The notes below the pieces were generated by a model, which ran no database searches, was not told the DNA's origin, and saw only the letters and a list, made by a program, of their open reading frames with translations. A DNA stretch of 64,000 bases, from NCBI RefSeq assembly GCF_054482525.1, contig NZ_CM137006.1; one strand, 5' to 3'. Of the stretch, positions 9,012 to 62,073 are shown piece after piece (position 1 is the stretch's first letter; each line of letters begins with the position of its first letter). A program made the translations under genes and the position numbers.

Positions 9012-9175
9012 CATGGCTACCGCATTTGATGTGCTCAACAGCTTTGTATTGAGATACTTTTAACAATGTTGTATTTAACTAGCTGATACTATTAATTATA
9101 AATGAGAATCAGAGCAAAAACGAGCGGTAGGTAAGATATAGACCGAAAGCATATAAAACCATAAATATCAAATCA

Positions 9176-10378: not shown

Positions 10379-10541
10379 TGGGGGCATCTCCCTGGACCGA
10401 ACACAGAATGCCCCCACTTATGCCCCCAACTGCGACTTGATTTCGGTTGAGTCCAGTTGATAACAGGAGATAAGATACGGGCCAGAAACCGCAGTATACG
10501 GGCTTTTAGTTGATTTCGGTAGACTTGGGAAGAGTTTGAAA

Positions 10542-10617
10542 TGGTGCCGATAATAGGAGTCGAACCTACGACCTTCGCATTACGAATGCGCTGCTCTACC
10601 AACTGAGCTATATCGGC
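10542..10617 (-). tRNA. thrW: tRNA-Thr (anticodon CGU), thrW-like
   Basis: Reverse complement reads GCCGATATAGCTCAGTTGGTAGAGCAGCGCATTCGTAATGCGAAGGTCGTAGGTTCGACTCCTATTATCGGCACCA, 76 nt with CCA end and anticodon loop TTCGTAA. Confidence 0.9.
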
Positions 10618-31797: not shown

Positions 31798-31855
31798 CCA
31801 GGGCAAGATTACGAAAGCCCGCTCCCTGCAAGGACTGACGCCAGGTAGTTTCTGT
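31798..31855. repeat. ~57-bp direct repeat copy 2, overlapping the 3' end of the H-repeat transposase gene
   Basis: Near-identical to 31665..31721; overlaps the stop codon region of the ORF at 31809..32945. Confidence 0.7.
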
Positions 31856-38393: not shown

Positions 38394-41300
38394 CTATTCT
38401 GGCGTGCCATTTATTGTTGCCGTCTGCGTTGGTGTATTCACACGATAATACACTCCATTATATGCTGTTCTGGTACACTCACCTAAAGTTTTCGCCGCAT
38501 GCTGTTCAATTAAAGTGATAACTCTCGCCTCTTCTTTATTTTTATATTGTTCATCCGCACGTCTCACAAGCCCCATATAACCATCCTTATCAATAAGATA
38601 TAAGTGCGCATGAGCAAACTCATGCCCCAAACCTAATGCAGGTGATTGTGATTTCGATTTTAAATCAGTTGAACAAAATAAAGCCGCCTTACCATTCCAA
38701 TATATAGTCATTTTATCCGGGTCAAATCTAACGTCGGTTTCATCAATATACTCTATCTTTATGGTTTCTTCAGAGCTTGATAAAAAATCTATAGCTTCTT
38801 TCATTCGTGAATCTTGTTTTAAATACTCAACAGCCTGATTAAAATCACTTGGATCACCGTTAACATGGAATTTTAAACCCAAAGAATCTATAAACCGAAC
38901 AGGGTTTAATGGATATTTATACAGATTCCATTCACCTCTTAGCCCGATTGGATCCTGGGTGATATACCTTCCCTGTAGCGGGTCATAGTACCGGTTCCGG
39001 TTATAGTACAGTCCTGATTCCTCATCATGCTGCTGCCCCGGCAGACGGTATGGCTGGTGCAGGTGATGCGGGTTCTCCTCATTCAGCAGGTTGCCTCATT
39101 CATCATATTCCCCACGCCATTCCGTTGCTCCTTCGGTACTGATGAGCGCCAGCGGCAGCCCCCGGTGGTCACAGTGATAAAGATGAATTTTTCGCTCAGG
39201 TAAATAAACCGGCTCTATCTGTGCCGCCAGCCGCTCCACCGTCAGCCCGCACTGTGCCAGCCACTGGCGGCTTTCACTGCTCACGCGGTCTGCCCGGATT
39301 TCCCCCTCCAGCCTGTCCAGCATCCTCACAAGTTCTGCCGGGAACACCACACCGTGGCCGTCCTCGCTTCCTTCCTGCTGCAACTTCTCCGCCAGGCTCC
39401 GCCGCTGCGTTTTCTCCCGCTCGCCGTTGTCTGTTTCGATGCGGATGAGTGGTGTGAAGCTTCCCGGCTCGTATACCGTCTGGATCCGGCTCTGTTGTGT
39501 CTGTATCGTCGTCAGCCTGTCACCGTCCCAGCCGTACCACGTTACCTCCGGTTTACGCGACAGCGACATCCACCCCGTCAGGTCACGTACCCGCCGCCAC
39601 ACCCGTTTACCCGTCCGGCGGCCCAGCGGGTCGTAGAGGTAGCGGCTCTCCACCTGCGGCTCGCCATGCTGTATCCGCGTGTAGAACACCAGGCGGTGCT
39701 GGCTGTCGTAGTGGTGGGTCCGCTCGTCGTCCGTCCGTATCACACCCGCCGGGATGCGGTCCGTCTTCTCCGTCAGCCTGCCGTATTCATCGTGGCGGTA
39801 GACATAGTGCGCATCCTCCGCGATGCGGTTATCCGGCCACACTGTGAGTGTACTGTCCGGGTGCAGCTCCGGGTCCGGCAGCCGGTTGCCCGCCGGGTCC
39901 GTGGCATACGGGATGCGGATGTCCAGGTCCGGTGCGAGGGTGCGCACGCTCTCCAGCCTGCCCGTGGCGCTGTAGCCGTATTCCCGCGTCTGTCGCGGGC
40001 CGCTGATGCGCACCAGGTCGCCGTTGTCATTCCACCCGTAGTCACGGTCATACACCAGGCTGTTCAGGTGCTGACTCTGTAACTGACCTGCGGGGGTGTA
40101 TGTGCTGGTCAGTTCATATGCGGAATTACTGCCTGCCATGCTGCCGAAGCTGCGCACCGTCTCACGGTGCAGCCTGTCCCGCGTATACTCGACCAGCGGC
40201 GTCCCGCCCAGCTTCATTCCCGCCAGGTAACCGCTGCCATACGTCAGCCACTCCACCGGCGGCAGGCTGTCCGGCGTGACGCGGTTTGCCAGCCCCTGCT
40301 CGTTGTATGCGTGTTTCGTCTCATGCTGCCACAGCAGTTCCCCCGTCTCCGGGTTCTCCACCGTCTGGCGTTCGCCGGTCAGGCGGCCTTTATCGTCATA
40401 GCCATAGTGGACGGCAACACGGTGGCCTTCGCTCAGGTGGCTGATTTCTCTCAGCCAGCCGTGGCCATCATACTGCCACTGCTCTGCCGGTTCGCCGTTC
40501 ACCGTGCGGTGAGTGATACGGTCCGATTCATCGTAGTACCAGAGGATGACAAGCCCCTCATCTTCACTCTGCGTGAGTTTTCCGGTCAGGTCATAATGAT
40601 AACGTTGCGTCCGCCCGTCAAAGCCGCCCTGCTGTACCAGGCGGTCCAGCGCATCGTAGCTGAAGTCGCTGTGACTGCCGTTCTCGTTGGTCAGGCTGAT
40701 GACACGTCCTGCCGCGTCATACTCCATACTGCGCGTCAGCCCGCCCTGCGTGGTGCTGACCGCCTTTCCCCACGCATCGTACTGTGTCTCGCTCCGGTTG
40801 CCGTCCGGGGTGATAACGGCAGTCAGGTCGCCTGCGGCGTTGTATTCATACCGCGTTTCACGGCCCTGTGCGTCTTTCACCGAGGTTAACCGGCCACGGT
40901 TGTCATAGCGGCGGTAAAGGCTGATGCCTTCCTCGCGGTGGACCGCCGTCATCTGGCCGAAGCGGTCATACTCATAGCGGGTCTGGTAGCCCGAGCAGTC
41001 GGTGAACGCCAGCAACTGACCGTAGCGGCTCCAGGTCATCTGCCGGGTGCTGCCCGTCGCATCTGTTGTCGTGGCCGGTAATTCACTGTGCGGATTATCA
41101 TAAGCATACCGGATGACGTCCCCACTGCGCGATGTCTCCGATACCAGCCTGTCCCGCTCATCATACGCCCGGCGGCTCTCCAGCCCGTCCGGGTACACCA
41201 CCGCCGTCACCAGGTTCCCGTCGTTATAGTAAAATTTCGTCTCCCGCCCGTCCGGCGTGGTGATGTCCGTGATGTCGCCTGACACCACATTCAGACCGTA

Positions 41301-42641
41301 CTCTGTCCGCCGTCCCGCCGCGTCCGTCTGCGCCGTAAGCCGCCCCACCGGGTCATACCCGCTGCGCGTGACGCTGCCGTCCGCCAGTTCTTTTTTCACC
41401 ACCCGCTTCAGCCCGGCCCCGCCTTCTGTATGCAGCACCTCACGCCGGTTCAGGCTGTCCGTGACGGTGATGCGGTCCTGCTCATACTGGTAGCGGTAAC
41501 TCAGGCCTGCCGGGTTCAGCTGCTCCACCACCCGCCCCGCATCGTCGTAGCGGTAGCGCATCTCCGGCCTTCCCGCGTAACGGTGCGCCACCATCCGGCC
41601 CGGGTGCTGCGCGTCATACGTGAAAGCGCGCACCTGCGTATTGCTGCGGTCATATACCGCCAGCAGTTCACCGGCTTCCGTATACGTGTACCGCACCAGT
41701 GGCGCACCGGGCAGGCTCTCCGGGTATGCCGGGTCGTGCATCAGCCACACCGCCGAAAGACGGATGCCCCTGTCGGGGCCGTATTCGGTACCGGGCAGTG
41801 TGTCGGGGAACGCTGAGGCTGAGAGAGGGCGGGAACGGTCAGAAGAAGATAGCGAAGAGGTGCGGGCCTCTTCCGCACGCTGCGCCTGCGTGGTCAGCAC
41901 CAGACGGAACTCCCGCCCGGCACCGTCCGTCACGCCGGTGATTTCCCCGGCCAGGTCACCGGCGGCCTCACGCCGGTACGTCAGCGTCCGCCCGAAGCGG
42001 TCCGCCAGCCCGGTAAGCACCCGGTACGGCGGCAGCGGCGCTGGCAGTACGTCCTCAGCACCCGGCACCCGCTCTGACCACCCCAGTATCCACCACGGTC
42101 CCTGTGCGCTGTTGGTCGCCAGGTAAAGATGCGGGCTTAACCGGATATCCGGCGGCAGCGACGCCCACAGCCGTGCCAGCGTGTGGCCGTCCGGCTGCGC
42201 TGCCTTACCACCGCGAACCAGCCACATTGACTCGCTGCGGCTGTACACCGCCTCCCCCGGCAGCAGCGGCTCAAGGTGAATGCTCCGCCCGCCGTTGTCG
42301 TTGAGTATCAGTCCGTCATCACGTAGCTGTAAGCGGATATCAGAAGGCGCTTTCCAGCCGGGGCCAAAAATCCCCACCGGCGCAGGCGTCTTCGTCCGGT
42401 AGCTGCTGTAGGTGCGGGAGAGAATGAACGGCAGCGGGCCGGGCAGCGCAAGGTCCGTCTCGCCGGGCAGCACCTTCGCCCCCAGCAGCGGATTTACCGG
42501 GTTGCCCGAAGTCATCCCGCCCGGACACACCGAGCACGCCACGCCGGTGGGCGCGCCAATTCTTACACCTGCCGAACCCTGGACAATGGGACCGCCATAC
42601 TGAGTCATATCTCCCTGACGCGCCGCTGGTTTTCCGCTCAT
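38394..42641 (-). pseudogene. rhs: PAAR-Rhs family T6SS effector with HExxH (zinc-metallopeptidase-like) C-terminal domain; frame interrupted by in-frame TGA
   Basis: Main ORF 39096..42641 (1181 aa) ends at a TGA where the paralogue has TGG (Trp); the same frame continues through the DPIGL core end into a C-terminal domain containing [10 protein letters not shown]. Confidence 0.75.
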
Positions 42642-42707: not shown

Positions 42708-44816
42708 TCAGTACTCTCTCATATCCGGCGTATCCTGCTTTTCATCAGGGGTCTTCGGTGGGGATTTCGAGGCTGCACAGTTCCAGTTAATCAACAGTGA
42801 GTCACCATTAACCTGCTCCTTACCCTGCAAATGAATTTTTGTGCCGTTGAGAAAAATTTGTCCGTCCTTAGTCAGCACCAGCCTTGCCTTACCACAGCAG
42901 AGTTCCAGATGCTCACCGCCGGAGTAAATCGCGGTCTGCCCGGTATCATCCTTTTTCGTTTTACCAACGGTGAAGGTAACGTTATTTCCGACTTTGACGT
43001 CATAACCCAGCCCGACCATCAACGATTTATGCAAACCGATCTGCGAGGACTGCATCAGGGCCACCGAGGTGTTCATAATGCCACCTACCGTCGTCTGATA
43101 CGCCACGCCCACAGTCAGCGCACGAACAAGTCCAATCGTTTCCACCTGAACAGAGCCCACTTTAATGATCTGGTTACTGCCCACCGTCTCTATCTGGTTA
43201 ACACCCACCGTCTGTATCTGATTGTTGGTAACCGCAATCATCTGATTGTTGCCAATGGTCTCAGCATGGTTGTTTATCACATCCGTGGTGCGGTTATTCA
43301 GCACCTCGGTGTTCATGTTCTTCTGCGCGTGGATGTAGACCTGTTCTTTCCCTGTCGCATCGTCAAACTTCAGTTCATTAAACCCGCTGCCCTTATAGGT
43401 TTTCGAACGAATGGTCATCTGCGTCTTTGTTCCCGGCAGGCTGCCGGGGGTGCGGTTTTCCTGGTGGTAGGTACGCCCCATAATAATCGGCTGGTCCGGA
43501 TCGCCGTTGAGGAAGTCCACAATGACTTCCTGACCCACACGCGGTATCGCCAGGTTGCCAAAGCCGGTGCCTGCCCACGCCTGTGCCACACGGATCCAGC
43601 ATGAACTGTCCTGGTTTGACGGGTTATAGCGGTCCCAGTTAAATTTCACCCGCACGCGGCCATGTTCATCACAGAAGATTTCTTCTCCTGCCGGTCCCGT
43701 CACGACGGCGCTCTGCGGGCCGTCCACCAGCGGTTTCAGCAACGGCTGTGGCCGCCATGTTCTGTCTGCCGGTATTACCGCAAAGTGGTTATTCAGCGTG
43801 GTACCTGAACCCCTGCGTCCCGGCACCGCCTGCGGCTGCTCGCCGTGCAGTTCACTTGCCACCACCTGCCATTCCCGGTTCAGGTTCGCCTGCGGATGCC
43901 CCGTCAGCGCAATTCGCCGTCCCGGCCATATCTCCGGCGAACGGCTTGTTCCGCGCGCCACTTCTGCGTTGTTTCGCCAGCCATCCATCTGCCAGCAGGC
44001 AAAGTTCTGCCCGTGGGCACCCTTGAAACGTCCGGGGTAGTCATACACTTCATACTGTGTGCGCTGGTAATCCTGGTGCTGGCCTTCCTGATCAAAACGC
44101 CCTGCCCAGCCGGGTCGTTTAAAGGTGTAGTCTTTGGTCACCACGGAAGATGGGCGGATTTGTGCGCTGTAGAGGAACTGGCTGATGCATAGGGTGCTCA
44201 CCTCGGTACGGGTGTTCGGATTCCAGGGGATCTCAAAGGACTCCGGCAGATAACGCACGGTGTCGCACAGGACCAGGCTCTGGTCGGTACTTTTTTGCGC
44301 GTGCTCCTCATAAAAGAAGATGCCTTCCTCCGCCGCCATCCGGCACAGGAAATCGTAATCGGTTTCGCCGTACTGGACACAAAACTCACGGGAAGGATGC
44401 GGCTCGCTGAACAGCGGACTCCACTCGGTCACCCCGTTTTCTTTCAGGATCGTCGCGAGTATGCTTTCGATGTCCTCATTCTGGAAGATACGGAAGTTCT
44501 GGCGCAGCCCTGTGCGCCACAGCGGTGGGCACACCTTCATGCTGTACAGCATCTGGTTTTTGTCGTTCTCCCCCAGTTCAAACCAGGTCACCACACCTTT
44601 CACCCGGCGCTGTACGTCATCGCCCTGCCATACCGTCAGGTAGGCCATTTTGTCCAGCACCTGCGCAAATTCAAGGGAGAGAAACTGCTGGCTGACCAGA
44701 GAGAGATCGAGGGAAAAGAGCGAAGAGAGTGACTGGTTCAGATGAAAGGAGACCACCGCAAACGCGTCCGGTGGCAGGCCGTCCACTTCCAGCGTGAAAC
44801 GTAATCCGGTTGACAT
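42708..44816 (-). CDS. vgrG: type VI secretion spike protein VgrG (TssI)
   Basis: 702 aa with VgrG-type gp27/gp5-like layout; immediately upstream of the Rhs gene. Confidence 0.9.
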   Translation of the reverse strand: MSTGLRFTLEVDGLPPDAFAVVSFHLNQSLSSLFSLDLSLVSQQFLSLEFAQVLDKMAYLTVWQGDDVQRRVKGVVTWFELGENDKNQMLYSMKVCPPLWRTGLRQNFRIFQNEDIESILATILKENGVTEWSPLFSEPHPSREFCVQYGETDYDFLCRMAAEEGIFFYEEHAQKSTDQSLVLCDTVRYLPESFEIPWNPNTRTEVSTLCISQFLYSAQIRPSSVVTKDYTFKRPGWAGRFDQEGQHQDYQRTQYEVYDYPGRFKGAHGQNFACWQMDGWRNNAEVARGTSRSPEIWPGRRIALTGHPQANLNREWQVVASELHGEQPQAVPGRRGSGTTLNNHFAVIPADRTWRPQPLLKPLVDGPQSAVVTGPAGEEIFCDEHGRVRVKFNWDRYNPSNQDSSCWIRVAQAWAGTGFGNLAIPRVGQEVIVDFLNGDPDQPIIMGRTYHQENRTPGSLPGTKTQMTIRSKTYKGSGFNELKFDDATGKEQVYIHAQKNMNTEVLNNRTTDVINNHAETIGNNQMIAVTNNQIQTVGVNQIETVGSNQIIKVGSVQVETIGLVRALTVGVAYQTTVGGIMNTSVALMQSSQIGLHKSLMVGLGYDVKVGNNVTFTVGKTKKDDTGQTAIYSGGEHLELCCGKARLVLTKDGQIFLNGTKIHLQGKEQVNGDSLLINWNCAASKSPPKTPDEKQDTPDMREY

Positions 44817-45025: not shown

Positions 45026-45544
45026 TTATGCTTCCAGCGGTGCGCGCCAGTCGTCGGCACCGGAGGTGCCAGACTTGACGTGTTCCCACTCTATTTTGCG
45101 GTAGGCCAGTGAAACTTCGAGCAACTGGGTGAACTCGCGTTTCGCCGGATCCTGGCAATGCGGCATATGCAGTTTCATATCGACAATCGTCGAATCGGTC
45201 AGGCGGGTGGTGAAATAATGCTCCTGTTTGCCTTCCACAGAGGTACGCCACCAGTGAAGTTCAGTGGTTGGCAGCATTTCGCCGGAGGCCAGTGCGTTGT
45301 ACATCAGCGGAACAGCTTTGTTCAGCGCCACGGTAAAAATGAACGGCTTGTGAGCACGCTGACCCGCAGGCTGGCCGGACTGAGGATCGGTCGGGACAGT
45401 AACGTTATGCAGGAATTCCTGCACCAGCATCTCGTCTTCGTGCCCCTGCACATAGATGTTGCCGACAGAATCAGCGGTAAATGCACCTGCAGTAATATTT
45501 CCCTGGGTCTGACCTGTGATGGAGATATAACACGGTGTTGGCAT
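45026..45544 (-). CDS. hcp: type VI secretion tube protein Hcp (TssD)
   Basis: 172 aa translation with typical Hcp sequence (MPTPCYISITGQTQGNITAGAFTADSVGNIYVQGHEDEMLVQEF...). Confidence 0.9.
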   Translation of the reverse strand: MPTPCYISITGQTQGNITAGAFTADSVGNIYVQGHEDEMLVQEFLHNVTVPTDPQSGQPAGQRAHKPFIFTVALNKAVPLMYNALASGEMLPTTELHWWRTSVEGKQEHYFTTRLTDSTIVDMKLHMPHCQDPAKREFTQLLEVSLAYRKIEWEHVKSGTSGADDWRAPLEA

Positions 45545-50800: not shown

Positions 50801-51846
50801 GTCCGGGAAATCCCCCGGCAGATAAAGAGCAGAATGATCCGCTGGCACAGGTTTTTCATAACGCCTGCTCTTACAATTTTTTTGCCATGGCGGAGCTGTT
50901 GCACCGCCTGGCACAGGGTGAAAAGGGGACGCTGGAATTATCCCTGCGCGACGATCCGGCACAGGAAACCCTGCGTTTCAGCGCCGATGCCAGCCTTGCG
51001 TTTCCCCTGAGTGATATCAGTGCGCTGAAACGGGATACGTCAGGGTCATTCAGGATGACCACCACCTTTATGGGGTTACAGGGGAGCCAGTCGCCTCTCC
51101 CCGGTTATTACCTCGATCACCTGGCCTGGAAAGCGGTACATGAACAAAGTCCGGTAGGTGATTTTCTGGATATGTTCAGCCACCGCCTGACCCAGTTTGT
51201 CTGGCATATCTGGCGTAAGTACCGCTATCACATCAGTTTTCGTAACGGCGGTGTGGATGCGTTCTCGCAGCGCATGTACTCCCTTGTCGGGCTGGGCCAC
51301 CGCCACCTTCGCGATAAGCTGGCGATTAATCACAGCAAAATGCTGGCGTATTCCGGGATCCTGGCAAATCCGGGACGATCCCCGGAAATCATCTGCGGTC
51401 TGGTGTCCCACTGCTTTGATTTGTCAGACGTGATGCTGCAAAACTGGCAACGTCGCAAGGTGGATATTGAACCGGATCAGCAAAATAGCCTGGGGAGCTA
51501 TTCACTTAAAAATGGCGAAAAACTGGCAGGAAGATCGGTACTGGGCAACTTTGTTCTGGGTACACGGGTGCCCGATCTCAGCGGAAAATTCCAGCTCAGT
51601 ATTACCAGCCTGACCCGAAAACAGTTCCTCTCTTTTCTGCCGTCCGGCGAAAACTTCCTGCCACTGACGATGTTTGTGTCCTTCATCCTGCGCGATCAGC
51701 TTGCCTGGGACTTACATCTGGGGCTGGCGCCGGAGCAGGTGGGCGCAATGCGCCTGGGCGATAACAAAAGTGCGCTGCTGGGCTGGACCAGCTTCCTCGG
51801 CACACCGGAAGAACGACCCTCAGTCACCATCAGGGTACGGTCGTAA
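50764..51846 (+). CDS. tssG: T6SS baseplate protein TssG
   Basis: ORF 50758..51846 overlapping the tssF end; second ATG at 50764 has better RBS spacing. Contains YNFFAMAELLHRL. Confidence 0.8.
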   Translation: MDGKNRAASSYLSPGNPPADKEQNDPLAQVFHNACSYNFFAMAELLHRLAQGEKGTLELSLRDDPAQETLRFSADASLAFPLSDISALKRDTSGSFRMTTTFMGLQGSQSPLPGYYLDHLAWKAVHEQSPVGDFLDMFSHRLTQFVWHIWRKYRYHISFRNGGVDAFSQRMYSLVGLGHRHLRDKLAINHSKMLAYSGILANPGRSPEIICGLVSHCFDLSDVMLQNWQRRKVDIEPDQQNSLGSYSLKNGEKLAGRSVLGNFVLGTRVPDLSGKFQLSITSLTRKQFLSFLPSGENFLPLTMFVSFILRDQLAWDLHLGLAPEQVGAMRLGDNKSALLGWTSFLGTPEERPSVTIRVRS

Positions 51847-52210
51847 ATTATGATAATCACGGAGCAGAATATGCCGGAAGAGAAACTACAGACGCTTTCA
51901 TTGCAGGTCATTAACGGCAGTGAGCTGGAAAGCGGGCGGGCGGCGCGCTGTCTGTTCACACAGCAGGGAAATGTCGGCCATGGCCCCGAATGCCACTGGT
52001 CGGTACAGGATCGTCAGCAGAGCATTCCGGCTCAGGCTTTTACCGTTATCCTGCACGATGGCACATTTTGTCTGCGCCCGCAGACGGCACAACTGTGGCT
52101 GAACCAGGCAAAAGTCACAGCAACATCAGACCTGATACAGCTGCGCCAGGGCGATGAGATCCAGATAGGGCGTCTGATGGTGAGGGTTCATCTGAACCGG
52201 GGAGATATCC

Positions 52211-53549
52211 CATAAGCGCTAACTTAAGGGTTGAACCATCTGAAGAATGCGACGCCTCGGTGCCTCGTTAAGACGATGCCTCGCGTTCTTCAATTGCGTT
52301 TTGTAGGCTGTCAGGGATACTGTCCCACGAATGGCCACCTGTAAGCTCCAGATGACCATTTTTGTTATTCTCCACAACGAGTTAGTTCTTCTTTTCGGAT
52401 CCGGCACTTCTGGGGGGGAAATCCAGCGATGGCTGGATTATGTCGTCAATTAAAAATGCGGCGAGTAGATTAGCAAATATCCACGCTTTCGCGAGTTCAG
52501 GTTCCTTTGCACGCAAAGCATCCAGGTGCAGCAAACTTTTGAGCCGCTTAAAAGCCAGTTCAATTTGCCATCGCAGACGGTAACAATCAGCCACTTGCTC
52601 TGCTGAATATTCATCTTCCGGTAATGATGTTAGCAATAGCACATGGCCCGCTGCTTCCAGCGTTTCCGCCTGAACTACTCGTCCTTTTCGACGATTCTCG
52701 CTGAGCAGTCGGGTTTTACTGATTAATGCTTTTTCGGGAGGAAGTGATACGGCAATGAGACGTGCCGGAAAGGGAGCTCCGGCTTTTTTATTACCTGAAT
52801 TGCCTATCATTACAGTGGTTTCACCGTTCTTACCGCAATCCAGCCCGCGCAGAAAACCCATCATGTCAAAGCGCATTCCTTCTGCAGTTAACCAGCGCAA
52901 TCCTCGCCAGTGAACCCGGACGATATAATCAGCTTCTCCAAAAGCAAGTGAGCGGATACATTCGGGACGCGAACCGAATCCCCGGTCAGCAATGCGTATC
53001 TCGTCTGCCGTTTGCGCAAATCGGTCCAGCCGTTCAGCGTCTCTGCTGTCGGTTAGCTCAAAATCAGTGAACTGACAGGTATGAGGATCATATCCCATAT
53101 GTAGTCGCCATTCAGCGCTGCCGCCCCCGGGCGCACTGATTGCTGTTCCATCGACAAGACGCAATCTCTTTCCGCTTGTACAACCCGTAACTGCGGCGCG
53201 TACAGCAAGTGTTTGTGCGGCAAGTATGCCAAACCAGTCGGCGGCATTCCGCAGCCGCTTCAGGAGAGCCACGTCAGATAATGTTGCAACGTCATGGAGC
53301 TGAGCCCATGCAGTGACTTCACGTAATGACATCCCCCCGGGGCCGTAAGCCAGCCCCAGACGTAGCAGAGTTGCAGCATCACGAATTTCGCGGCGGCGGG
53401 TTAGAGCCCCGGCATTACGTGCCGAAGTATCCAGTTCTTCGGGCTTACCAATATGGGCCAGAATTGCTGACCAGTTATCGTGAGAGTAATTCATCGGCAC
53501 GTTAAATCATATCAGGCGTAATACCACAACCCTTAAGTTAGCGCTTATG
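52211..53549 (-). mobile_element. IS186 (IS4 family) insertion sequence
   Basis: ~23-bp terminal inverted repeats (cataagcgctaacttaagggttg at 52211-52233, exact reverse complement at 53527-53549), flanking 11-12 bp duplication ggagatatccc, target of form GGGG-N6-CCCC. Confidence 0.85.
52382..53494 (-). CDS. IS186 transposase (DDE, IS4 family)
   Basis: ORF 52382..53500; translation from the ATG at 53494 (MNYSHDNWSAILAHIGKPEELDTSARNAGALTRRRE...) matches IS186 transposase as recalled. Confidence 0.85.
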   Translation of the reverse strand: MNYSHDNWSAILAHIGKPEELDTSARNAGALTRRREIRDAATLLRLGLAYGPGGMSLREVTAWAQLHDVATLSDVALLKRLRNAADWFGILAAQTLAVRAAVTGCTSGKRLRLVDGTAISAPGGGSAEWRLHMGYDPHTCQFTDFELTDSRDAERLDRFAQTADEIRIADRGFGSRPECIRSLAFGEADYIVRVHWRGLRWLTAEGMRFDMMGFLRGLDCGKNGETTVMIGNSGNKKAGAPFPARLIAVSLPPEKALISKTRLLSENRRKGRVVQAETLEAAGHVLLLTSLPEDEYSAEQVADCYRLRWQIELAFKRLKSLLHLDALRAKEPELAKAWIFANLLAAFLIDDIIQPSLDFPPRSAGSEKKN

Positions 53550-54496
53550 GGAGATATCCCCCATTACGATGAGGAAATGGCCACTCCCGAAACCATCGTC
53601 ACCAATCGCGATATGCTCACGGATACCCTGCTGTCAACGGAGGGTGCGCCACACTATCCGGGAATGACTCACCGGCATCAGCTTGCAGACACCGTGGTAA
53701 ACGGTTTTTCTGCCGATCCACTCCAGGCACTTCAGTCCGAAAGCCTGATTACCACGGGCGATCCGCTTTCAGGCATTGCGGCTGTCCGGCCATCGGCACC
53801 GCTGTCCGATCCGGCAAGTAATGGGGGGATCAATACGCCGTTTATGAATCTGCCGCCCATTTATGCCAGCCCCGGCGATCGTAATGATGACGTCTCTGTG
53901 GCAGAAATGGCGCAACGCCACCTTGCGGTCACCCCCTTACTGCGCGGTCTCGGCGGTTCGCTTACCGTGAGCAATTCCGACGATGCGGATGATTTTCTGG
54001 AAGAGGCCGGACGCACGTTACAGGCCGCAATAAAAGGTCTGCTCGATTTGCAGCAACAGCGTAACAGCCTCTCAGACAAACATTTGCGCCCGCTGGAAGA
54101 TAACCCGCTGCGCCTGAACATGGATTACGCCACCGCGCTCGACGTGATGTTTGCCGAAGGTAAAAGTCCGGTACATCTGGCGGCTCCCGCCGCTGTCAGT
54201 GAAAGCCTGCGCAATGTCCGCCACCACGAAGAAGCTAACCGGGCAGCGATTGTGGAGTCGCTTCGTGTCCTGCTGGATGCTTTCTCACCACAAAATCTGC
54301 TGCGCCGCTTTGTGCAGTACCGCCGCAGCCATGAACTGCGCCAGCCGCTGGATGATGCCGGAGCATGGCAAATGTACAGCCATTATTACGAAGAACTGGC
54401 CTCCGATCGCCAGCAGGGGTTTGAGATGCTGTTTAACGAGGTCTACGCCCAGGTCTATGACCGGGTGCTTCGTGAAAAACAGCGGGAGCCGGAAGC

Positions 54497-55021
54497 ATGA
54501 ACAGGAAGGCGTTTCTGGCCTGCGTGCTGATGTGCGTCATATTAACCGGCTGCGAAACGGCGAAAAAAATCAGCGAGGTGATCAAAAACCCGGATATCCA
54601 GGTCGGGAGCCTGAAGGAGCAACCTTCGGAAATAACCGTCACCCTGCTGACCGAACCGGACACCAATACCAATGCGGAGGGTGAATCAGCCGCCGTGGAT
54701 GTGCAACTGGTGTACCTGACTGACGACTCAAAATTGCTGGCAGCCGACTATGACCAGATAGCCAGTACGCCGCTACCGGATGTGCTGGGTAAAAACTATA
54801 TCGACCACCAGGATTTCAACCTGTTGCCGGACACCATCAAAACCCTGCCGCCGGTAAAGCTGGATGAGAAAACGCAGTTTATTGGTGTCGTGGCCTATTT
54901 CTCCGATGACCAGGCCACTGAATGGAAACAAATCGAGACGGTGGAAGGAACCGGCCACCATTACCGCCTGCTGGTGCATGTACGTCAAAGCAGCATCGAA
55001 ATGAAAAAAGAGGATGAATAA
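54497..55021 (+). CDS. tssJ: T6SS outer-membrane lipoprotein TssJ
   Basis: 174 aa with lipoprotein signal (ILTGC lipobox). Confidence 0.8.
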   Translation: MNRKAFLACVLMCVILTGCETAKKISEVIKNPDIQVGSLKEQPSEITVTLLTEPDTNTNAEGESAAVDVQLVYLTDDSKLLAADYDQIASTPLPDVLGKNYIDHQDFNLLPDTIKTLPPVKLDEKTQFIGVVAYFSDDQATEWKQIETVEGTGHHYRLLVHVRQSSIEMKKEDE

Positions 55022-55023
55022 TT

Positions 55024-56355
55024 ATGGCAACCACCCGCAACAAGGTGATGTGGCAGGAAGGGATGCTGATGCGCCCACACCACTTCCAGCAACAGCAGCG
55101 TTACAACGACTACCTGGATAACCAGCGTTTCCGGGCCATGAATGATTTATCCTGGGGATTTACCGAACTCACCCTCAACAATGAACTGCTGGCGCAGGGT
55201 AAGATCATGATTGACAGCGCGTCAGGCACACTGCCCGACGGCACCGTCTTTTCTATCCCCGACCAGGACGCACTGCCCGATCCGCTGCACCCGCAACATT
55301 TTCCGGACGAAAGAAGCCGCAATATTTACCTCGCTCTGCCGGTCGCCAGTGATGTGAGAAATGAAATCAGCGACGGGCGGCGAATCGGGCGTTACCGGCT
55401 GAATTATGCCGATGTCCGGGATCTGCATTCAGAAGAAGGTGACGCGCGAACACTGACGCTGGGTCAACTGACGCCGCGCATTATGAGCGGTGCAGAAGAT
55501 ATGAGCGCCTATATTACGCTCCCGCTTTGCCGTATCAGCGATCGCCATGCCGACGGCTCCCTGACGCTGGATGACGATTTTATCCCCTCCTGCCAGAATA
55601 TTCAGGTCAGTAAGAAACTGCGTGTTTATCTCAAAGAGGTACAGGGGGCCATTGGCGGACGGGCAAGCGATCTGGCAAACCGCATTGGCTCTCCGGCGCA
55701 GAGCGGCATCGCGGATGTGGCGGAATTTATGATGTTGCAGTTACTTAACCGTAACCAGACCCGGTTTACCCATCGCGCTCGTCGATCCCAGCTCCACCCG
55801 GAAGATTTCTACCTTGATCTTGCCGGGTTGCTGGGTGAACTGATGACCTTTACCGAGCCGTCGCGCCTGCCCTGCCCGCTTGATGTGTATGATCATCATG
55901 ACCTGACCAAAACATTTAAAACGCTGTTACCGGAAGTCAAACGGGCGCTGCATACCGTACTGTCGCCAAGAGCCGTTAATCTGCCGCTGCATCTGCGTGA
56001 CGGTATCAGGCAGGCCGATATTCATGACACAGAACTGCTGCAATCTGCCACCTTTGTGCTGGCCGTGGCGGCAAACATGCCGGTCGATCAGATCCAGCGC
56101 CAGTTTATCCAGCAGTCGAAAATTTCCTCGCCGGAAAAAATCCGCAATATGGTCAGTGTGCAGATACCCGGCATTCCATTGCGTGCCCTGATGGTGGCTC
56201 CCCGCCAGCTTCCTTACCATTCCGGGTTCAGCTATTTCGAACTCGACAAAAGCGGCCAGGCCTGGGCTGAAATAGCTGCCGCCGGGGCCGTTGCACTGCA
56301 TGTCTCCGGCAGTTTTCCGGACCTGAATATGCAACTGTGGGCGATAAGAGGGTAA
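55024..56355 (+). CDS. tssK: T6SS baseplate protein TssK
   Basis: 443 aa; N-terminus VMWQEGMLMRPHHFQQQ typical of TssK. Confidence 0.85.
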   Translation: MATTRNKVMWQEGMLMRPHHFQQQQRYNDYLDNQRFRAMNDLSWGFTELTLNNELLAQGKIMIDSASGTLPDGTVFSIPDQDALPDPLHPQHFPDERSRNIYLALPVASDVRNEISDGRRIGRYRLNYADVRDLHSEEGDARTLTLGQLTPRIMSGAEDMSAYITLPLCRISDRHADGSLTLDDDFIPSCQNIQVSKKLRVYLKEVQGAIGGRASDLANRIGSPAQSGIADVAEFMMLQLLNRNQTRFTHRARRSQLHPEDFYLDLAGLLGELMTFTEPSRLPCPLDVYDHHDLTKTFKTLLPEVKRALHTVLSPRAVNLPLHLRDGIRQADIHDTELLQSATFVLAVAANMPVDQIQRQFIQQSKISSPEKIRNMVSVQIPGIPLRALMVAPRQLPYHSGFSYFELDKSGQAWAEIAAAGAVALHVSGSFPDLNMQLWAIRG

Positions 56356-56359
56356 GACG

Positions 56360-57121
56360 ATGGATGAGGAGTCACTGTCTCTGCCACCATTTATCGGACA
56401 CGACGAAAAAGGCCAGCGCGACTACCATCTCGCGCTTCGTGGCAACAGCCTGAATCCGATGATCGACGCAGCCACGCCGCTCCTCGGTATGGTGATGCGC
56501 CTTTCAACCATGAACAGCCAGACGATGCCGGAGCATCTTTTTGCTCAGGTGGTGACGGATGTTCAGGCCGTGGAGCAACTGCTTCAGGAGCAGGGCTACG
56601 AACCGGGCGTGATTATCTCGTTTCGCTACATCCTCTGCACGTTTATTGATGAAGCGGCGCTCGGTAACGGCTGGTCGAACAAGAACGAGTGGATCAAGCA
56701 GTCATTGCTGGTCCATTTCCACAACGAAGCCTGGGGTGGAGAGAAAGTTTTCATCCTGCTGGAGCGCCTGATCCGTGAACCCAAACGTTACCAGGATCTG
56801 CTGGAATTTCTCTGGCTCTGTTTTTCTCTGGGATTTCGCGGGCGCTACAAAGTGGCAGCACAGGATCAGGGGGAATTTGAGCAGATCTACCGCCGCCTGT
56901 ACCACGTCCTGCATAAACTACGCGGCGATGCCCCTTTCCCGCTGTTACACAAGGACAAAAAAACCCAGGGCGGGCGTTATCAGCTCATCAGTCGCCTGAC
57001 CATTAAACATATTTTTTGTGGTGGCGTTGTCGTGCTGGCGTTGTTTTACCTGTTCTATCTGTTGCGGCTGGACAGCCAGACGCAGGACATCCTGCACCAG
57101 CTAAACAAATTACTTCGATAA
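56360..57121 (+). CDS. tssL: T6SS membrane complex protein TssL (DotU/IcmH-like)
   Basis: 253 aa with C-terminal TM segment (VVVLALFYLFYLL). Confidence 0.8.
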   Translation: MDEESLSLPPFIGHDEKGQRDYHLALRGNSLNPMIDAATPLLGMVMRLSTMNSQTMPEHLFAQVVTDVQAVEQLLQEQGYEPGVIISFRYILCTFIDEAALGNGWSNKNEWIKQSLLVHFHNEAWGGEKVFILLERLIREPKRYQDLLEFLWLCFSLGFRGRYKVAAQDQGEFEQIYRRLYHVLHKLRGDAPFPLLHKDKKTQGGRYQLISRLTIKHIFCGGVVVLALFYLFYLLRLDSQTQDILHQLNKLLR

Positions 57122-57129
57122 GGACGTTT

Positions 57130-59913
57130 ATGATCCAGATTGATCTTCCCACGCTGGTAAAACGGCTTAACCTGTTCTCCCGCCAGGCGCTGGAGATGGC
57201 CGCCTCTGAATGTATGAGCCAGCAGGCAGCGGAAATTACCGTCAGCCATGTGCTTATTCAGATGCTCGCCATGCCACGCAGCGACCTGCGGGTTATTACC
57301 CGCCAGGGCGATATTGGCATGGAAGAGTTGCGCCAGGCGCTGACGGTGGAGAACTACACAACTGCCCGTTCTGCGGACAGCTACCCGGCATTTTCCCCGA
57401 TGCTGGTTGAGTGGCTGAAAGAGGGCTGGCTGCTGGCGTCGGCTGAGATGCAGCACAGCGAATTGCGTGGCGGCGTGTTGCTGCTGGCCCTGCTGCATTC
57501 GCCGCTGCGTTATATACCGCCTGCTGCCGCCCGGTTGTTGACCGGCATTAACCGTGACCGTCTGCAACAGGACTTTGTACAGTGGACACAGGAGTCGGCG
57601 GAATCAGTCGTGCCGGATGCAGACGGTAAAGTCGCAGGCACACTGACGGACGCTGCTGACACCCTGCTTGCCCGCTACGCCAAAAACATGACCGCAGACG
57701 CCCGTAACGGCAGGCTTGACCCGGTACTGTGCCGCGACCACGAAATCGACCTGATGATCGACATTCTCTGCCGCCGCCGCAAGAACAACCCGGTGGTGGT
57801 GGGCGAAGCAGGCGTGGGTAAAAGTGCCTTAATCGAAGGGCTGGCGCTGCGCATCGTGGCAGGCCAGGTGCCGGACAAACTGAAAAACACCGATATCATG
57901 ACCCTTGACCTGGGCGCATTGCAGGCCGGGGCGTCGGTGAAGGGCGAATTCGAAAAACGCTTCAAGGGGCTGATGGCGGAGGTCATTTCCTCTCCGGTGC
58001 CGGTCATTCTGTTTATTGACGAAGCACATACCCTGATTGGCGCGGGCAACCAGCAGGGCGGGCTGGATATCTCCAACCTGCTCAAACCGGCGCTGGCGCG
58101 CGGCGAACTGAAAACCATCGCCGCCACCACCTGGAGCGAATACAAAAAATACTTCGAGAAAGATGCCGCCCTGTCGCGCCGCTTCCAGCTGGTGAAGGTC
58201 AGCGAACCCAACGCCGCCGAAGCCACCATTATTCTGCGTGGTCTGTCGGCGGTCTATGAACAGTCTCACGGCGTGCTGATTGATGATGACGCCTTGCAGG
58301 CCGCAGCAACGCTGAGCGAACGTTATCTCTCCGGGCGTCAGTTGCCGGACAAAGCCATTGATGTGCTGGATACCGCCTGCGCCCGCGTCGCCATTAACCT
58401 TTCCTCGCCGCCGAAGCAAATCTCGGCGCTGACCACTCTGAGCCACCAGCAGGAGGCGGAAATTCGCCAGCTTGAGCGCGAGCTTCGCATCGGGCTGCGT
58501 ACCAACACCTCACGGATGACCGAGGTGCTGGTGCAGTACGATGAAACGCTGACGGCGCTGGATGAACTGGAAGCGGCCTGGCATCAGCAGCAGGCGCTGG
58601 TCCGGGAGATTATCGCGCTGCGCCAGCAGTTGCTGGGCGTGGCAGAAGACGATGCGGCGTCGTTGCCGGACGCAGATGCCGCGGAGGATACGCCGCCAGA
58701 GTCAGAGTCAGAGTCAGAGTCAGAGTCAGAACAGGATAATACCGGTGCCGTACCGGCTGATGAGGCCGACAGAGAACAGCCGGAAGAGACCGCTGAAACA
58801 GTTTCCCCGGTACAGCGGCTGGCCCAGCTCACTGCCGAACTGGACGCCCTGCATAACGACCGGTTGCTGGTCTCCCCGCACGTCGATAAAAAACAGATTG
58901 CGGCGGTGATTGCCGAATGGACCGGCGTGCCGCTCAACCGCCTGTCGCAGAATGAAATGTCGGTCATCACCGACCTGCCGAAATGGCTGGGCGACACCAT
59001 CAAAGGCCAAGACCTGGCGATTGCCAGCCTGCATAAGCATCTACTGACCGCACGCGCCGACCTGCGTCGTCCGGGACGCCCGCTCGGTGCGTTCCTGCTG
59101 GCTGGCCCCAGCGGTGTGGGTAAAACCGAAACCGTCCTGCAACTGGCAGAGCTGCTCTACGGCGGTCGCCAGTACCTGACCACCATCAATATGTCCGAGT
59201 TCCAGGAGAAACACACCGTCTCGCGGCTGATTGGCTCCCCTCCGGGCTATGTCGGCTATGGCGAAGGCGGCGTACTGACCGAAGCGATCCGCCAGAAACC
59301 CTACTCGGTGGTGCTGCTCGATGAAGTGGAAAAAGCGCACCCGGATGTCCTCAACCTGTTCTACCAGGCGTTCGACAAGGGCGAGATGGCAGACGGCGAA
59401 GGCCGCCTGATTGACTGTAAAAACATCGTTTTCTTCCTCACCTCCAACCTTGGTTATCAGGTGATTGTCGAACACGCCGATGACCCGGAAACCATGCAGG
59501 AAGCCCTCTATCCGGTGCTGGCGGACTTCTTTAAACCTGCCTTGCTGGCGCGCATGGAAGTGGTGCCTTACATGCCGCTGTCGAAAGAGACGCTCGCTAC
59601 CATTATTGCCGGGAAACTGGCCCGCCTGGATAACGTGCTGCGCAGCCGCTTTGGCGCGGACGTGATTATTGAGCCGGAAGTGACGGACGAAATCATGAGC
59701 CGTGTCACCCGCGCTGAAAACGGCGCAAGGATGCTCGAATCGGTCATCGATGGCGACATGCTACCGCCGCTCTCGCTGCTGCTGTTGCAGAAAATGGCGG
59801 CTAACACGGCGATTGCCCGGATTCGGTTGTCGGCGGTGGACGACGCATTTACGGCAGACGTGGAAGATGCTCAGAACGACGAGTCCGTCACAAAGGATGA
59901 AACGGTTTTATGA
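57130..59913 (+). CDS. clpV: T6SS AAA+ ATPase ClpV (TssH)
   Basis: ORF 57016..59913; ATG at 57130 gives a Clp/Hsp100-type protein with two Walker A motifs (GEAGVGKSAL, GPSGVGKTET). Confidence 0.9.
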   Translation: MIQIDLPTLVKRLNLFSRQALEMAASECMSQQAAEITVSHVLIQMLAMPRSDLRVITRQGDIGMEELRQALTVENYTTARSADSYPAFSPMLVEWLKEGWLLASAEMQHSELRGGVLLLALLHSPLRYIPPAAARLLTGINRDRLQQDFVQWTQESAESVVPDADGKVAGTLTDAADTLLARYAKNMTADARNGRLDPVLCRDHEIDLMIDILCRRRKNNPVVVGEAGVGKSALIEGLALRIVAGQVPDKLKNTDIMTLDLGALQAGASVKGEFEKRFKGLMAEVISSPVPVILFIDEAHTLIGAGNQQGGLDISNLLKPALARGELKTIAATTWSEYKKYFEKDAALSRRFQLVKVSEPNAAEATIILRGLSAVYEQSHGVLIDDDALQAAATLSERYLSGRQLPDKAIDVLDTACARVAINLSSPPKQISALTTLSHQQEAEIRQLERELRIGLRTNTSRMTEVLVQYDETLTALDELEAAWHQQQALVREIIALRQQLLGVAEDDAASLPDADAAEDTPPESESESESESEQDNTGAVPADEADREQPEETAETVSPVQRLAQLTAELDALHNDRLLVSPHVDKKQIAAVIAEWTGVPLNRLSQNEMSVITDLPKWLGDTIKGQDLAIASLHKHLLTARADLRRPGRPLGAFLLAGPSGVGKTETVLQLAELLYGGRQYLTTINMSEFQEKHTVSRLIGSPPGYVGYGEGGVLTEAIRQKPYSVVLLDEVEKAHPDVLNLFYQAFDKGEMADGEGRLIDCKNIVFFLTSNLGYQVIVEHADDPETMQEALYPVLADFFKPALLARMEVVPYMPLSKETLATIIAGKLARLDNVLRSRFGADVIIEPEVTDEIMSRVTRAENGARMLESVIDGDMLPPLSLLLLQKMAANTAIARIRLSAVDDAFTADVEDAQNDESVTKDETVL
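58699..58728 (+). repeat. in-frame hexanucleotide tandem repeat (gagtca)x5 encoding (Glu-Ser)5 inside clpV
   Basis: Five exact gagtca units read directly; translated as ESESESESES in the ClpV inter-domain region. Confidence 0.8.
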
Positions 59914-60653
59914 GCAGGTTGCGCGTTTTCCGGCAGACAGGATGGTTTATCGCGGGCCTGATGACGGGCTTACCCGCCACTGCCGCGCCCGCAGAAACAT
60001 CGTCAATGGCCGGTGTGGCGGTCGCCGTCGCCACCACGACCCCGCCGGATGCGACAGCCACGTTACAGGCCATGCAGTCCTGTCGGCGGGAGTCCGCGGC
60101 GCTGGAGCGGCTTGACTGCTATGACCGCCTGCTGGCACCGCTGTCCCCGTCAGGGTTTGACGGGGCGCTGGTCAAAGCCGGTTTTGTGGGCGAGGCCTGG
60201 ACCCGCGCCACAGAGCAGGAAAAACGCCGCGAGGGCAACACCACAGAACTGCTGGTGACGCAGGTGCCGGGGGAGCGCCCGACGGTGGTGATAACCACCC
60301 CGGCTATCGGCCATGTTCCGCCGCGCCCGGTGCTGATGTTCAGTTGCGTGGACAATATCACCCGGATGCAGGTGGCGCTGATGCCCCCTCTGGATGTCCA
60401 TGATATCGCCGTCACTCTGAATGCCGACAGCCGGGCATTGCGTAGCCACTGGTTTGTGCGCGAGAACGGCACCCTGCTGGAGTCCAGCCGGGGGCTGTCC
60501 GGGATTGATGAAATTAAGCAACTGTTCGGCGCAAAAACGCTGACAGTGGATACCGGCGCAGATAACGCCGCAGGAAAGCTGACCTTTAACATTGACGGGC
60601 TGGCAAGGGCGATTGCCCCCCTGCGCGATGCCTGCCACTGGGCGGGAGAATAA
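59910..60653 (+). CDS. T6SS-associated secreted protein (VasI-like by position; family unverified)
   Basis: 247 aa with N-terminal signal-like segment; start overlaps clpV stop; sits between clpV and tssA as VasI does in Vibrio-type clusters. Confidence 0.45.
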   Translation: MSRLRVFRQTGWFIAGLMTGLPATAAPAETSSMAGVAVAVATTTPPDATATLQAMQSCRRESAALERLDCYDRLLAPLSPSGFDGALVKAGFVGEAWTRATEQEKRREGNTTELLVTQVPGERPTVVITTPAIGHVPPRPVLMFSCVDNITRMQVALMPPLDVHDIAVTLNADSRALRSHWFVRENGTLLESSRGLSGIDEIKQLFGAKTLTVDTGADNAAGKLTFNIDGLARAIAPLRDACHWAGE

Positions 60654-60657
60654 AAAT

Positions 60658-62073
60658 ATGGCAATGGACTTACGCGATCCGAATGTCTGGATGTCGCACC
60701 TGATGGAAAATCTGCAGGAAGAGAAACTGGCATCGGCGCTGAAAGATGACACCCCGGACTGGGAATATATCGACGGCGAAATCGTCAAGCTGGGGTCACT
60801 GGCCCACAGCCAACTGGATATCCCGGAACTCCAGCGCCGGGGGCTGGTCCTTCTGGCTTCGGAGAGTAAGGATTTTCGTCTGCTGGCGCATCTGCTGAGA
60901 ACCCTGCAACACGCCGGTGATCCTCATCTCGCATTGCGCCTGCTGGCGCTGTATGTGGAGCATTACTGGGTGGTGGCCGCGCCGCAGAATATGGCGCATA
61001 AAAAACGCTTTGCCAGCCAGGTCATTAAACGCTTTGCAACAGGTATTGAAGGCTTTTCACAGAACGCAGCCACAGCGCAGCGCGATGCGCTATTAGGTGA
61101 ACTGGCGAAACTGGCGCAGTGCTGGCAGTCACATAACGCCCCGGAACTGGCACAGGCTACTGATGATCTTTTTGCCCTGTACCAGCGTGCGTTTAACCGT
61201 GCGGTACCGGCTCCTGTCCCCACTCTGGCGGCCTCCGGTAGTTCACCACAGACCACCACCACGTCTGAAAGCGGCGTGACGCAAACCAGTACTCCGGCTC
61301 CACAGATCGCCATCGACAGTCACGACGACAAAGCCTGGCGCGACACGCTGTTAAAAGTGGCGGCCATTTTATGTGAACGCCAACCGGACTCGCCGCAGGG
61401 CTATCGCCTGCGCCGCTATGCCCTGTGGCAATCCATCACCAGTACGCCCCAGGCAGAAAGCGATGGACGAACCCCACTGGCCGCGGTCTCCGCCGATATG
61501 GTTGCAGATTACCATGCTCAGCTCGGTAGTGCCGATATGGCGCTGTGGCAGCAGGTGGAAAAAAGCGTATTGCTGGCACCCTACTGGCTGGACGGTCACT
61601 GCATTTCTGCACAGACGGCGCACCGTCTTGGCTATACCGCCGCGGCCGATGCCATCCGCGATGAAGTCGTTTCCTTTCTTGGCCGTCTGCCCGCTCTTGC
61701 CGATCTTCTCTTTAACGACCGCACACCGTTTGTTTCAGAAAAAACTAAGCAGTGGCTTGCGTCTCAGGCTGGCAACCCGGCAGCTCCGGTCATACAGGCG
61801 AGTAATGAAGATATTCAAGCTGCGCGAGCGTGTTTTGATGAACATGGGCTGGAGGCCGCCTTACGGTATCTAAACACTTTGCCCGATGGTGACCCTCGCA
61901 ACCAGTTTCATCGCCAGTATTTTAGTGCGCAGCTTATGGAAGAGGCGGGACTGATACAGCTTGCACAGCAGCAGTACCGAATGCTGTTCAGGTTGGCTGG
62001 AGAAATGATGGTTATTGACTGGGAGCCGTCTTTACTTACGCAGCTCGAACAAAAATTCACGGCAGAATACTAA
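60658..62073 (+). CDS. tssA: T6SS protein TssA (ImpA-family, VasJ-like)
   Basis: ORF 60592..62073; ATG at 60658 (MAMDLRDPNVWMSHL...); position directly upstream of tssM. Confidence 0.65.
   Translation: MAMDLRDPNVWMSHLMENLQEEKLASALKDDTPDWEYIDGEIVKLGSLAHSQLDIPELQRRGLVLLASESKDFRLLAHLLRTLQHAGDPHLALRLLALYVEHYWVVAAPQNMAHKKRFASQVIKRFATGIEGFSQNAATAQRDALLGELAKLAQCWQSHNAPELAQATDDLFALYQRAFNRAVPAPVPTLAASGSSPQTTTTSESGVTQTSTPAPQIAIDSHDDKAWRDTLLKVAAILCERQPDSPQGYRLRRYALWQSITSTPQAESDGRTPLAAVSADMVADYHAQLGSADMALWQQVEKSVLLAPYWLDGHCISAQTAHRLGYTAAADAIRDEVVSFLGRLPALADLLFNDRTPFVSEKTKQWLASQAGNPAAPVIQASNEDIQAARACFDEHGLEAALRYLNTLPDGDPRNQFHRQYFSAQLMEEAGLIQLAQQQYRMLFRLAGEMMVIDWEPSLLTQLEQKFTAEY

Follow-up and report, generated by a model that had tools for sequence, protein, structure and literature searches.

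The three IS186 copies of E. coli K-12 (IS186A, B and C) are members of the IS4 family with 23-bp ends and a 370-aa transposase encoded by insL. The published target of the element is 5′-GGGG(N6/N7)CCCC-3′, based on 59 recovered insertion sites, and only 54 sites of this form are present in the K-12 genome, some of which are hit repeatedly (Lee et al. 2016, PMC5009759). At one canonical site 16 independent hits have been documented (PMC5009759).

The TagH/Fha proteins of type VI secretion systems (T6SS; TIGR03354) combine an FHA domain with a C-terminal T6SS_FHA_C domain. TagH (VasC) of V. cholerae shares this two-domain layout and is encoded between tssG and tssJ in a vas-type cluster without PpkA and PppA. 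Secretion depends on phosphorylated TagH/Fha in P. aeruginosa and in S. marcescens, the requirement in A. tumefaciens operates via phospho-TssL, and in the T6SS of V. cholerae, which is also without PpkA and PppA, a tagH mutant secretes no Hcp (review PMC10482370). The literature searched yielded no demonstration that E. coli T6SS-1 requires TagH.

The tagH gene in the DNA analysed here (the window, a stretch of 64,000 nucleotides) has the same domain layout and the same place between tssG and tssJ, but differs from TagH/Fha of other T6SS in being interrupted, in this case by a complete IS186. The element, its target and its mode of insertion are already known, as is the T6SS accessory gene that was hit. 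The new point is the natural recurrence of IS186 in multiple lineages at one site in a coding region.

IS186 in tagH of the T6SS-1 cluster

The locus is the chromosomal T6SS-1 cluster adjoining aspV, in which a divergent hcp-vgrG-rhs arm faces tssB-C-E-F-G-tagH-J-K-L-H-vasI-A-M, the gene order being that of annotated loci with 99.9-100% identity to the window. An additional Hcp gene and a tRNA-Asp are found downstream of T6SS-1 in strain VTB96933v. The window holds hcp (45026-45544), vgrG (42708-44816) and tssB, C, E, F and G intact at their annotated lengths, and the same applies to the operon genes 3′ of tagH, that is tssJ, tssK, tssL (icmH/dotU), tssH, vasI and tssA (54497..62073, (+) strand), while tssM, which comes after tssA, is cut by the window end. 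Genes for the Ser/Thr kinase PpkA or the phosphatase PppA are not annotated in the near-identical clusters of VTB96933v, SCU-102 and PCN033, and the TagH of the window is thus of the kinase-less, V. cholerae-like kind.

The inserted element spans 52211-53549 and is identical at 1339 of 1339 bases to IS186A of E. coli K-12 MG1655 (NC_000913 15387-16731 served as the reference for the alignment). It lies on the (-) strand, so that its transposase reads against the T6SS operon. The terminal inverted repeats, CATAAGCGCTAACTTAAGGGTTG, occupy 52211-52233 (+) at the transposase-distal end and 53527-53549 (-) at the transposase-proximal end; they are complementary at 23/23 positions and are the only two matches to this sequence in the window when up to 3 mismatches are allowed, against an expectation of 0 from shuffles. 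The insL gene (52382..53494, (-)) encodes an intact transposase of 370 aa with a DDE domain (Pfam DDE_Tnp_1, 3.6e-26, residues 107-348), a score above the cut-off of the NCBIfam IS4 family model NF033592 (133 bits vs 115) and the YREK (Y-2-R-3-E-6-K) signature of the IS4 family, YRLRWQIELAFKRLK, at residue 305. Since both the reading frame and the two ends are intact, this copy is expected to be active in transposition. RefSeq product names for this transposase are ‘IS186B family’ or ‘IS421 family’. Assignment to IS421 instead of IS186 was rejected as a difference in naming only; the element is the K-12 IS186A at every base. Of 5,426 complete genomes of E. coli, 2,220 have related IS186 copies, the median being 3 places per genome, and copies covering at least 80% of the element are present in 2,692 E. 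coli records. The window contains a single copy, and its donor copy is unseen.

The strict, non-overlapping target-site duplication, as delimited by repeat search and reconstruction, is the 10-bp GGAGATATCC at 52201..52210 and 53550..53559. The longest exact direct repeat at the IS186 ends is 12 nt, GGGAGATATCCC (52200-52211 and 53549-53560), which takes one base from each IS end because IS186 begins with C and ends with G; as the outer base at each end of the 12-nt repeat belongs to IS186, the duplication proper is 10 bp. A duplication of 11 bp had been proposed in the first-pass annotation. The duplication itself stands, but a length of 10 bp is preferred in view of the strict repeat and the GG-N6-CC geometry of the K-12 copy; the 11-mer includes the first base of the IS, which reflects boundary ambiguity and is no error. 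Deleting IS186 together with one repeat copy restores the empty site as CCGGGGAGATATCCCCCATT, that is GGGG-AGATAT-CCCC, an instance of GGGG-N6-CCCC. The K-12 IS186A site, GGGG-ATCACT-CCCC with duplication GGATCACTCC, has the same geometry, GG-N6-CC inside GGGG-N6-CCCC. The GGGG-N6-CCCC preference named in the first-pass annotation agrees both with the published motif (PMC5009759) and with the geometry at IS186A. No other GGGG-N6-CCCC or GGGG-N7-CCCC occurs on either strand of the 64-kb window, so that the canonical target taken by IS186 is the only one in about 62.7 kb. The junctions between IS186 and tagH are captured by the k-mers GAACCGGGGAGATATCCCATAAGCGCTAAC and GTTAGCGCTTATGGGAGATATCCCCCATTAC.

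Joining 51850-52210 to 53560-54500 yields a single open reading frame of 433 aa in 1302 nt (divisible by 3), which includes ...VHLNRGDIPHYDEEMATPE... at the join. The restored protein scores 340.5 bits against TagH TIGR03354 (cut-off 120.25), with residues 16-425 on profile positions 1-420 of 420, and Pfam places an FHA domain at 42-107 (E = 5e-4, weak) and T6SS_FHA_C at 249-422 (E = 3e-41). The canonical target spans codons 117-122 of tagH and the break itself, at codons 118-121, lies in the linker that joins the FHA and the C-terminal domains. The de-inserted stretch of 2,152 nt has one-piece matches of 100% in many genomes, under annotated tssG, tagH and tssJ. The main structural claims of the first-pass annotation are borne out by these data: its IS186 at 52211-53549 was placed exactly and has the exact ~23-bp inverted repeats ascribed to it, the joined flanks form one reading frame with an end-to-end match to TagH, and the FHA-domain gene had been intact before insertion, the de-inserted DNA being 100% identical to annotated intact tagH genes.

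In its present state the gene consists of two fragments on the (+) strand. The 5′ fragment (51850..52215; RefSeq start at 51871) holds native residues 1-121 with the whole FHA domain and stops directly after residue 121 at a TAA in the IS end, where the bases CATAA of the transposase-distal repeat provide the stop codon at 52213-52215. The 3′ fragment (53550..54500) holds native residues 118-433 including T6SS_FHA_C and is open, in frame, from an ATG donated by the last three bases of the transposase-proximal repeat (53547-53549). No Shine-Dalgarno-like sequence is present in the 25 nt preceding this ATG.

Recurrence of IS186 at the tagH site

An 80-nt probe spanning the empty site was run against complete E. 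coli genomes. Of the 2,114 that possess the site, 2,101 (>99%) have it uninterrupted, and the other 13 carry IS186 at the exact position. A 100-nt probe over the left junction was matched in full in 7 genomes (RS571, CUVET20-PYO4, JBEHAAB-19-0176, LR-62-2, NRZ105822, VTB96933v and MMC-J-0020), and in genomes outside these 7 it was matched through the 23-bp end only. A corresponding probe with the IS reversed was matched in full in another 6 (Br_167_kylling, APEC E19025 and E18005, YF-1, VTB97585v and GPEC1405); in Br_167_kylling the duplication comprises the identical bases and the transposase lies on the operon strand. The same lesion of tagH is annotated as a pseudogene by RefSeq in 13 genomes. 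Isolates bearing the IS come from people, dogs, chickens/poultry and manure on several continents; the RS571-like group has been sampled in Bangladesh, Thailand, Japan, Ecuador and Germany, and the poultry group includes O78:H51 APEC strains.

IS elements are commonly misassembled, and a copy of IS186 could have been collapsed into tagH or misplaced there by the assembly. Nothing specific to this locus points that way, and the perfect 10-bp duplication at a consensus target, the identical junctions in 7 independently finished genomes and the mirror-image junctions in 6 more make the probability of such an artefact negligible.

Alignment of 3 kb of the left flank resolves four haplotypes, differing from each other by 22-71 SNPs per 3 kb. 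Haplotype I comprises the window and VTB96933v, with IS186 in the same orientation, together with SCU-102 and PCN033, in which the site is empty. Haplotype II is the RS571 group, where the IS is oriented as in the window. The row of LR-62-2 in the SNP matrix is unreliable since its left flank is mostly replaced by IS3. Haplotype III holds the IS in the orientation of the window in MMC-J-0020 and in the opposite orientation in YF-1, VTB97585v, GPEC1405 and APEC E19025, and haplotype IV is Br_167_kylling, again with the opposite orientation. Haplotype-specific SNPs approach the IS to about 45 bp on the left and, in GPEC1405, to about 50 bp on the right. The flanks of the window do not have their best match in any of the 7 genomes with the same junction. 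VTB96933v differs from the window by 1 SNP in the 3 kb left of the equally oriented IS, but its identity over the 10.4 kb downstream is 96.4%, a score exactly as obtained for IS-free O166:H15 genomes.

The occurrence of both orientations and of four flank haplotypes indicates that the tagH site is a recurrent hot spot for IS186, hit independently at least 4 times and probably six times. The lower figure counts one hit per haplotype, and the higher one splits the two orientations of haplotype III and sets the window apart from VTB96933v. Common descent of the insertions in the window and in VTB96933v was considered and found less parsimonious, given the 96.4% downstream identity to VTB96933v against 100% to the IS-free PCN033.

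In principle, all 14 occupied sites could derive from one or two insertions that were spread by recombination, with the orientation flipped by inversion in place between the 23-bp ends. Such an inversion between inverted repeats is formally possible, and the window and VTB96933v are indeed 1 SNP apart on the left with the IS equally oriented. However, ends of 23 bp offer very little length for a homologous inversion, and the haplotypes differ by 22-71 SNPs per 3 kb, with their diagnostic SNPs so close to the IS that almost no homology is left for co-transfer. The window and VTB96933v also diverge downstream, and each of them has near-identical relatives without the IS. Considering in addition that repeated hits of IS186 at a single site are documented, as cited above, we regard a spread from one or two events as very unlikely and favour independent insertions into a hot spot.

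Age of the insertion and predicted effect on T6SS-1

Upstream of the insertion the window aligns to SCU-102 as a single block of 44.3 kb with 26 SNPs and one 6-nt indel; 20 of the 26 SNPs lie inside rhs and the other 6 are spread over about 41 kb. Over the 10.4 kb downstream, identity is 100.0% to PCN033 and 99.9% to both SCU-102 and 19KM1776. Both SCU-102 and PCN033 have tagH annotated as intact, and the de-inserted sequence has an unbroken match in 19KM1776. That the nearest relatives, SCU-102 and PCN033, are without the IS and have an intact tagH, and that no secondary decay is visible in the core operon, supports a recent insertion, later than a very shallow split of the lineages as judged from the sequences. 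The comparison with insertion-free strains called for at the outset thus came out in favour of the early proposal of a recent event, as tagH is uninterrupted in both relatives and the joined flanks match intact orthologues. A recent date also fits the perfect duplication, the unmutated IS186 and the undamaged neighbouring genes.

We consider it very probable that IS186 transposed into the single canonical target in tagH and split the gene, that this happened recently and at a recurrent hot spot, and that it most likely left T6SS-1 silent. The identity of the element, the geometry of the target, the restoration of the gene, the absence of the IS in the nearest relatives and the recurrence are seen directly in the sequences, the cut-and-paste mechanism is adopted from the IS4 family, and polarity and loss of secretion are predicted. 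A functional IS186 with its DDE transposase would have moved into GGGG-AGATAT-CCCC at codons 117-122, and staggered cuts 10 bp apart, followed by repair, would have duplicated GGAGATATCC. The 5′ part of tagH, terminated by the TAA in the IS end after residue 121, would yield an FHA-only fragment, and the 3′ part with T6SS_FHA_C would be deprived of its promoter and ribosome-binding site. Transcripts from the tssB promoter would have to traverse 1.3 kb of untranslated antisense IS RNA with a terminator-like hairpin, from which lower expression of tssJ-K-L-H-vasI-A-M is to be expected. The net outcome would most likely be a silent T6SS-1.

A candidate contributor to this polarity is a terminator-like hairpin with a T-run inside IS186 (GCCGGAAAGGGAGCTCCGGC TTTTTTATTA; 52764..52793, (+), the operon strand), with a predicted fold of -16.5 kcal/mol (z = -2.05). 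It is kept as a candidate only, because such hits are no commoner around IS186 than in shuffled sequence (3 vs 2.7, no excess). A scan of 51800-54600 by strict consensus, which internal promoters upstream of tssJ could escape, detected no sigma-70-like promoter on either strand.

We infer from the loss of TagH and the polarity on tssJ-tssM that T6SS-1 activity would be lost, and in the window strain the chain from TagH loss and reduced tssJ-tssM expression to a silent T6SS-1 is likely to hold. The first-pass annotation had suggested that the insertion may have disabled or deregulated the T6SS. Disabling through tagH is plausible on this analysis, but deregulation is unsupported, with neither an outward promoter nor a sigma-70-like site around the IS. 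Other outcomes than silencing by IS186 are that the system had been impaired earlier, or that the split halves keep some function.

As to the second of these, the two parts of TagH could both be made (residues 1-121 and 118-433) and work together, or an outward promoter of the IS could drive tssJ-tssM. Both halves are complete reading frames with a 4-residue overlap, and the IS end donates both the stop codon and the in-frame ATG. But the 25 nt before this ATG are devoid of a Shine-Dalgarno-like sequence, promoter-like sites are absent from both strands between 51800 and 54600 and IS186's own promoter faces inward, so that continued function by this route appears very unlikely, if anything slightly more so than the spread of the IS from one or two events.

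A more serious alternative is that the insertion is real but without phenotype, T6SS-1 being already inactive or dispensable and the IS a neutral step of decay under relaxed selection. In the window strain a TGG-to-TGA nonsense change is present in rhs, the effector gene beside vgrG, and T6SS-1 may thus have been impaired before IS186 arrived. The close relatives have lesions as well, different in each: vgrG of SCU-102 has an internal stop, and in PCN033 vgrG is frameshifted and IS200C sits in tssG. Elsewhere, IS3 and a group II intron stand in place of the vgrG/rhs side in the RS571 group, and the segment running from hcp into the 5′ part of tssG is missing from LR-62-2. On the other hand, hcp, vgrG, tssB-C-E-F-G-J-K-L-H, vasI and tssA are all intact in the window, which indicates that the core machine was still complete when IS186 landed, and tagH is uninterrupted in all but a small minority of the genomes holding the site (2,101/2,114). 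Neutral decay is therefore a possible reading that we consider distinctly less likely than silencing of T6SS-1 by the insertion.

Significance and comparison with known systems

Given that T6SS-1 is probably silent, a genome-based call of ‘T6SS present’ would overstate the competitive or virulence equipment of this strain. The canonical IS186 target in tagH is conserved in ~2,100 complete E. coli genomes, and the site offers an example from natural populations of the IS186 hot spots that have until now been documented mostly in laboratory lines. It is a convenient marker and also a test case for a question explicitly left open by Lee et al. 2016 (PMC5009759), namely whether selection acts against such sites or whether they are tolerated or exploited. 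A hot spot in tagH was not described in any paper found to name both IS186 and type VI secretion, and no title on tagH and insertion sequences was found that pointed to one.

One may speculate that the conserved GGGG-AGATAT-CCCC in tagH constitutes a built-in ‘off switch’ by which IS186 silences T6SS-1, with insertions being repeatedly selected. We hold this to be rather unlikely, although not as remote as the spread from one or two insertions discussed above. If it were true, loss of T6SS-1 would be favoured in certain host-associated or multidrug-resistant lineages, such as the RS571-like strains and the poultry group.

Compared to the K-12 copies of IS186, which it resembles in its 23-bp ends, its 370-aa transposase and its insertion geometry, the element in the window differs in location alone, lying in tagH of a T6SS-1 cluster that is absent from K-12. 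The tagH cases share with the documented IS186 hot spots (Lee et al. 2016, PMC5009759) a single canonical target, repeated independent hits in either orientation and loss of function, the last being predicted here. The documented cases, however, concern laboratory strains or experiments and a promoter, whereas those in tagH concern natural isolates and the coding region of a secretion-system operon.

The locus may also be likened to the ETT2 type III cluster and the IS-mediated attrition of E. coli secretion islands (PMC3032704). In both, the lesions are lineage-specific and piecemeal, represented in T6SS-1 by IS186 in tagH, IS200C in tssG, an IS3-mediated deletion and stop codons in vgrG and rhs. 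Unlike ETT2, T6SS-1 is still intact at the tagH site in over 99% of the genomes possessing it.

Overlap of tagH with tssJ, and rhs as the site of a second T6SS lesion

The stop codon of tagH, the FHA-domain gene split by IS186, overlaps the start codon of tssJ in an ATGA motif (window 54497-54500), and translation of tssJ may therefore be coupled to that of tagH. If this coupling is true, the polar effect of the IS186 insertion would be increased.

The gene adjoining vgrG is rhs, encoding an Rhs core/effector protein, and its ORF lies on the minus strand (39096-42641). When compared to SCU-102, a nearest relative with intact tagH, the window carries a TGG to TGA nonsense change in this gene at 39096-39098 (minus strand), base 39096 being T in the window and C in SCU-102. 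Translation of the window shows that the reading frame stays open beyond the TGA stop, and the Rhs protein is truncated at 1181 of ~1417 aa with loss of its C-terminal toxin part. This nonsense codon is a second lesion within the T6SS module hit by IS186.

Differences from SCU-102 are concentrated in the same gene. Twenty of the 26 SNPs, together with a 6-nt indel, fall in rhs, at 39715 and 40929-42453, and only six are found in the other ~41 kb of the comparison. The two rhs copies cross-match at 77-87%, and the SNP cluster looks like the outcome of gene conversion between them.

Islands and elements elsewhere in the window

An integrase-bearing island (2754-10617) is located at tRNA-Thr(CGT), which lies on the minus strand (10542-10617). 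Its gene identities, taken from the annotation of the near-identical SCU-102, are a RecQ-family helicase (2754-4853), a DprA-like protein (4850-6175), a GTP pyrophosphokinase (6357-7346), a nucleoid-associated protein (7355-8446), a SLATT-domain protein within the island and a tyrosine recombinase (9176-10417). This predicted gene content resembles that of a defence or anti-phage island. At about 22340-24112, the SCU-102 annotation also points to what is left of the lateral-flagella (Flag-2) cluster, a partial flhA pseudogene beside lafU. The T6SS/rhs island has at its outer edge an ISAs1-family transposase ORF of 378 aa (31809-32945, minus strand), with yafV on one side and the distal rhs remnants on the other; SCU-102 is arranged likewise.

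T6SS-1 damage and IS186 junctions in other genomes

An IS186-junction probe search of the E. coli genome collection identified further junctions beside rpiA, a GTPase-family gene and a DUF2543 gene, each repeated in many genomes; these may be additional fixed or hot-spot sites.

In the RS571 group, a five-genome lineage with IS186 in the same orientation as in the window (L005-L009), an IS3-family element stands in place of the vgrG/rhs arm upstream of hcp, joined in three of the five by a group II intron. In LR-62-2 of this group, whose IS186 transposase has a different protein accession (WP_021575045.1), an IS3-associated deletion took out the stretch from hcp up to and including the 5′ end region of tssG (RS571-group loci, especially L008 6904-8686). 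This replacement and deletion are additional decay following the tagH hit. In Br_167_kylling, with IS186 in the opposite orientation on flank haplotype IV, tssG is annotated as frameshifted (L003 1105-2186), and the DNA alignment of the compared loci (A2, column 1667) displays a one-base deletion in a T-run of this gene.

Among the closest strains, vgrG is intact in the window (42708-44816, 702 aa) and has an internal stop in SCU-102 (L014 309-2417); in PCN033 vgrG is frameshifted and IS200C lies within tssG (L015 1-1706 and 7654-9447). Since these lesions all differ, the T6SS-1 locus has been damaged differently in each of three near-identical strains.
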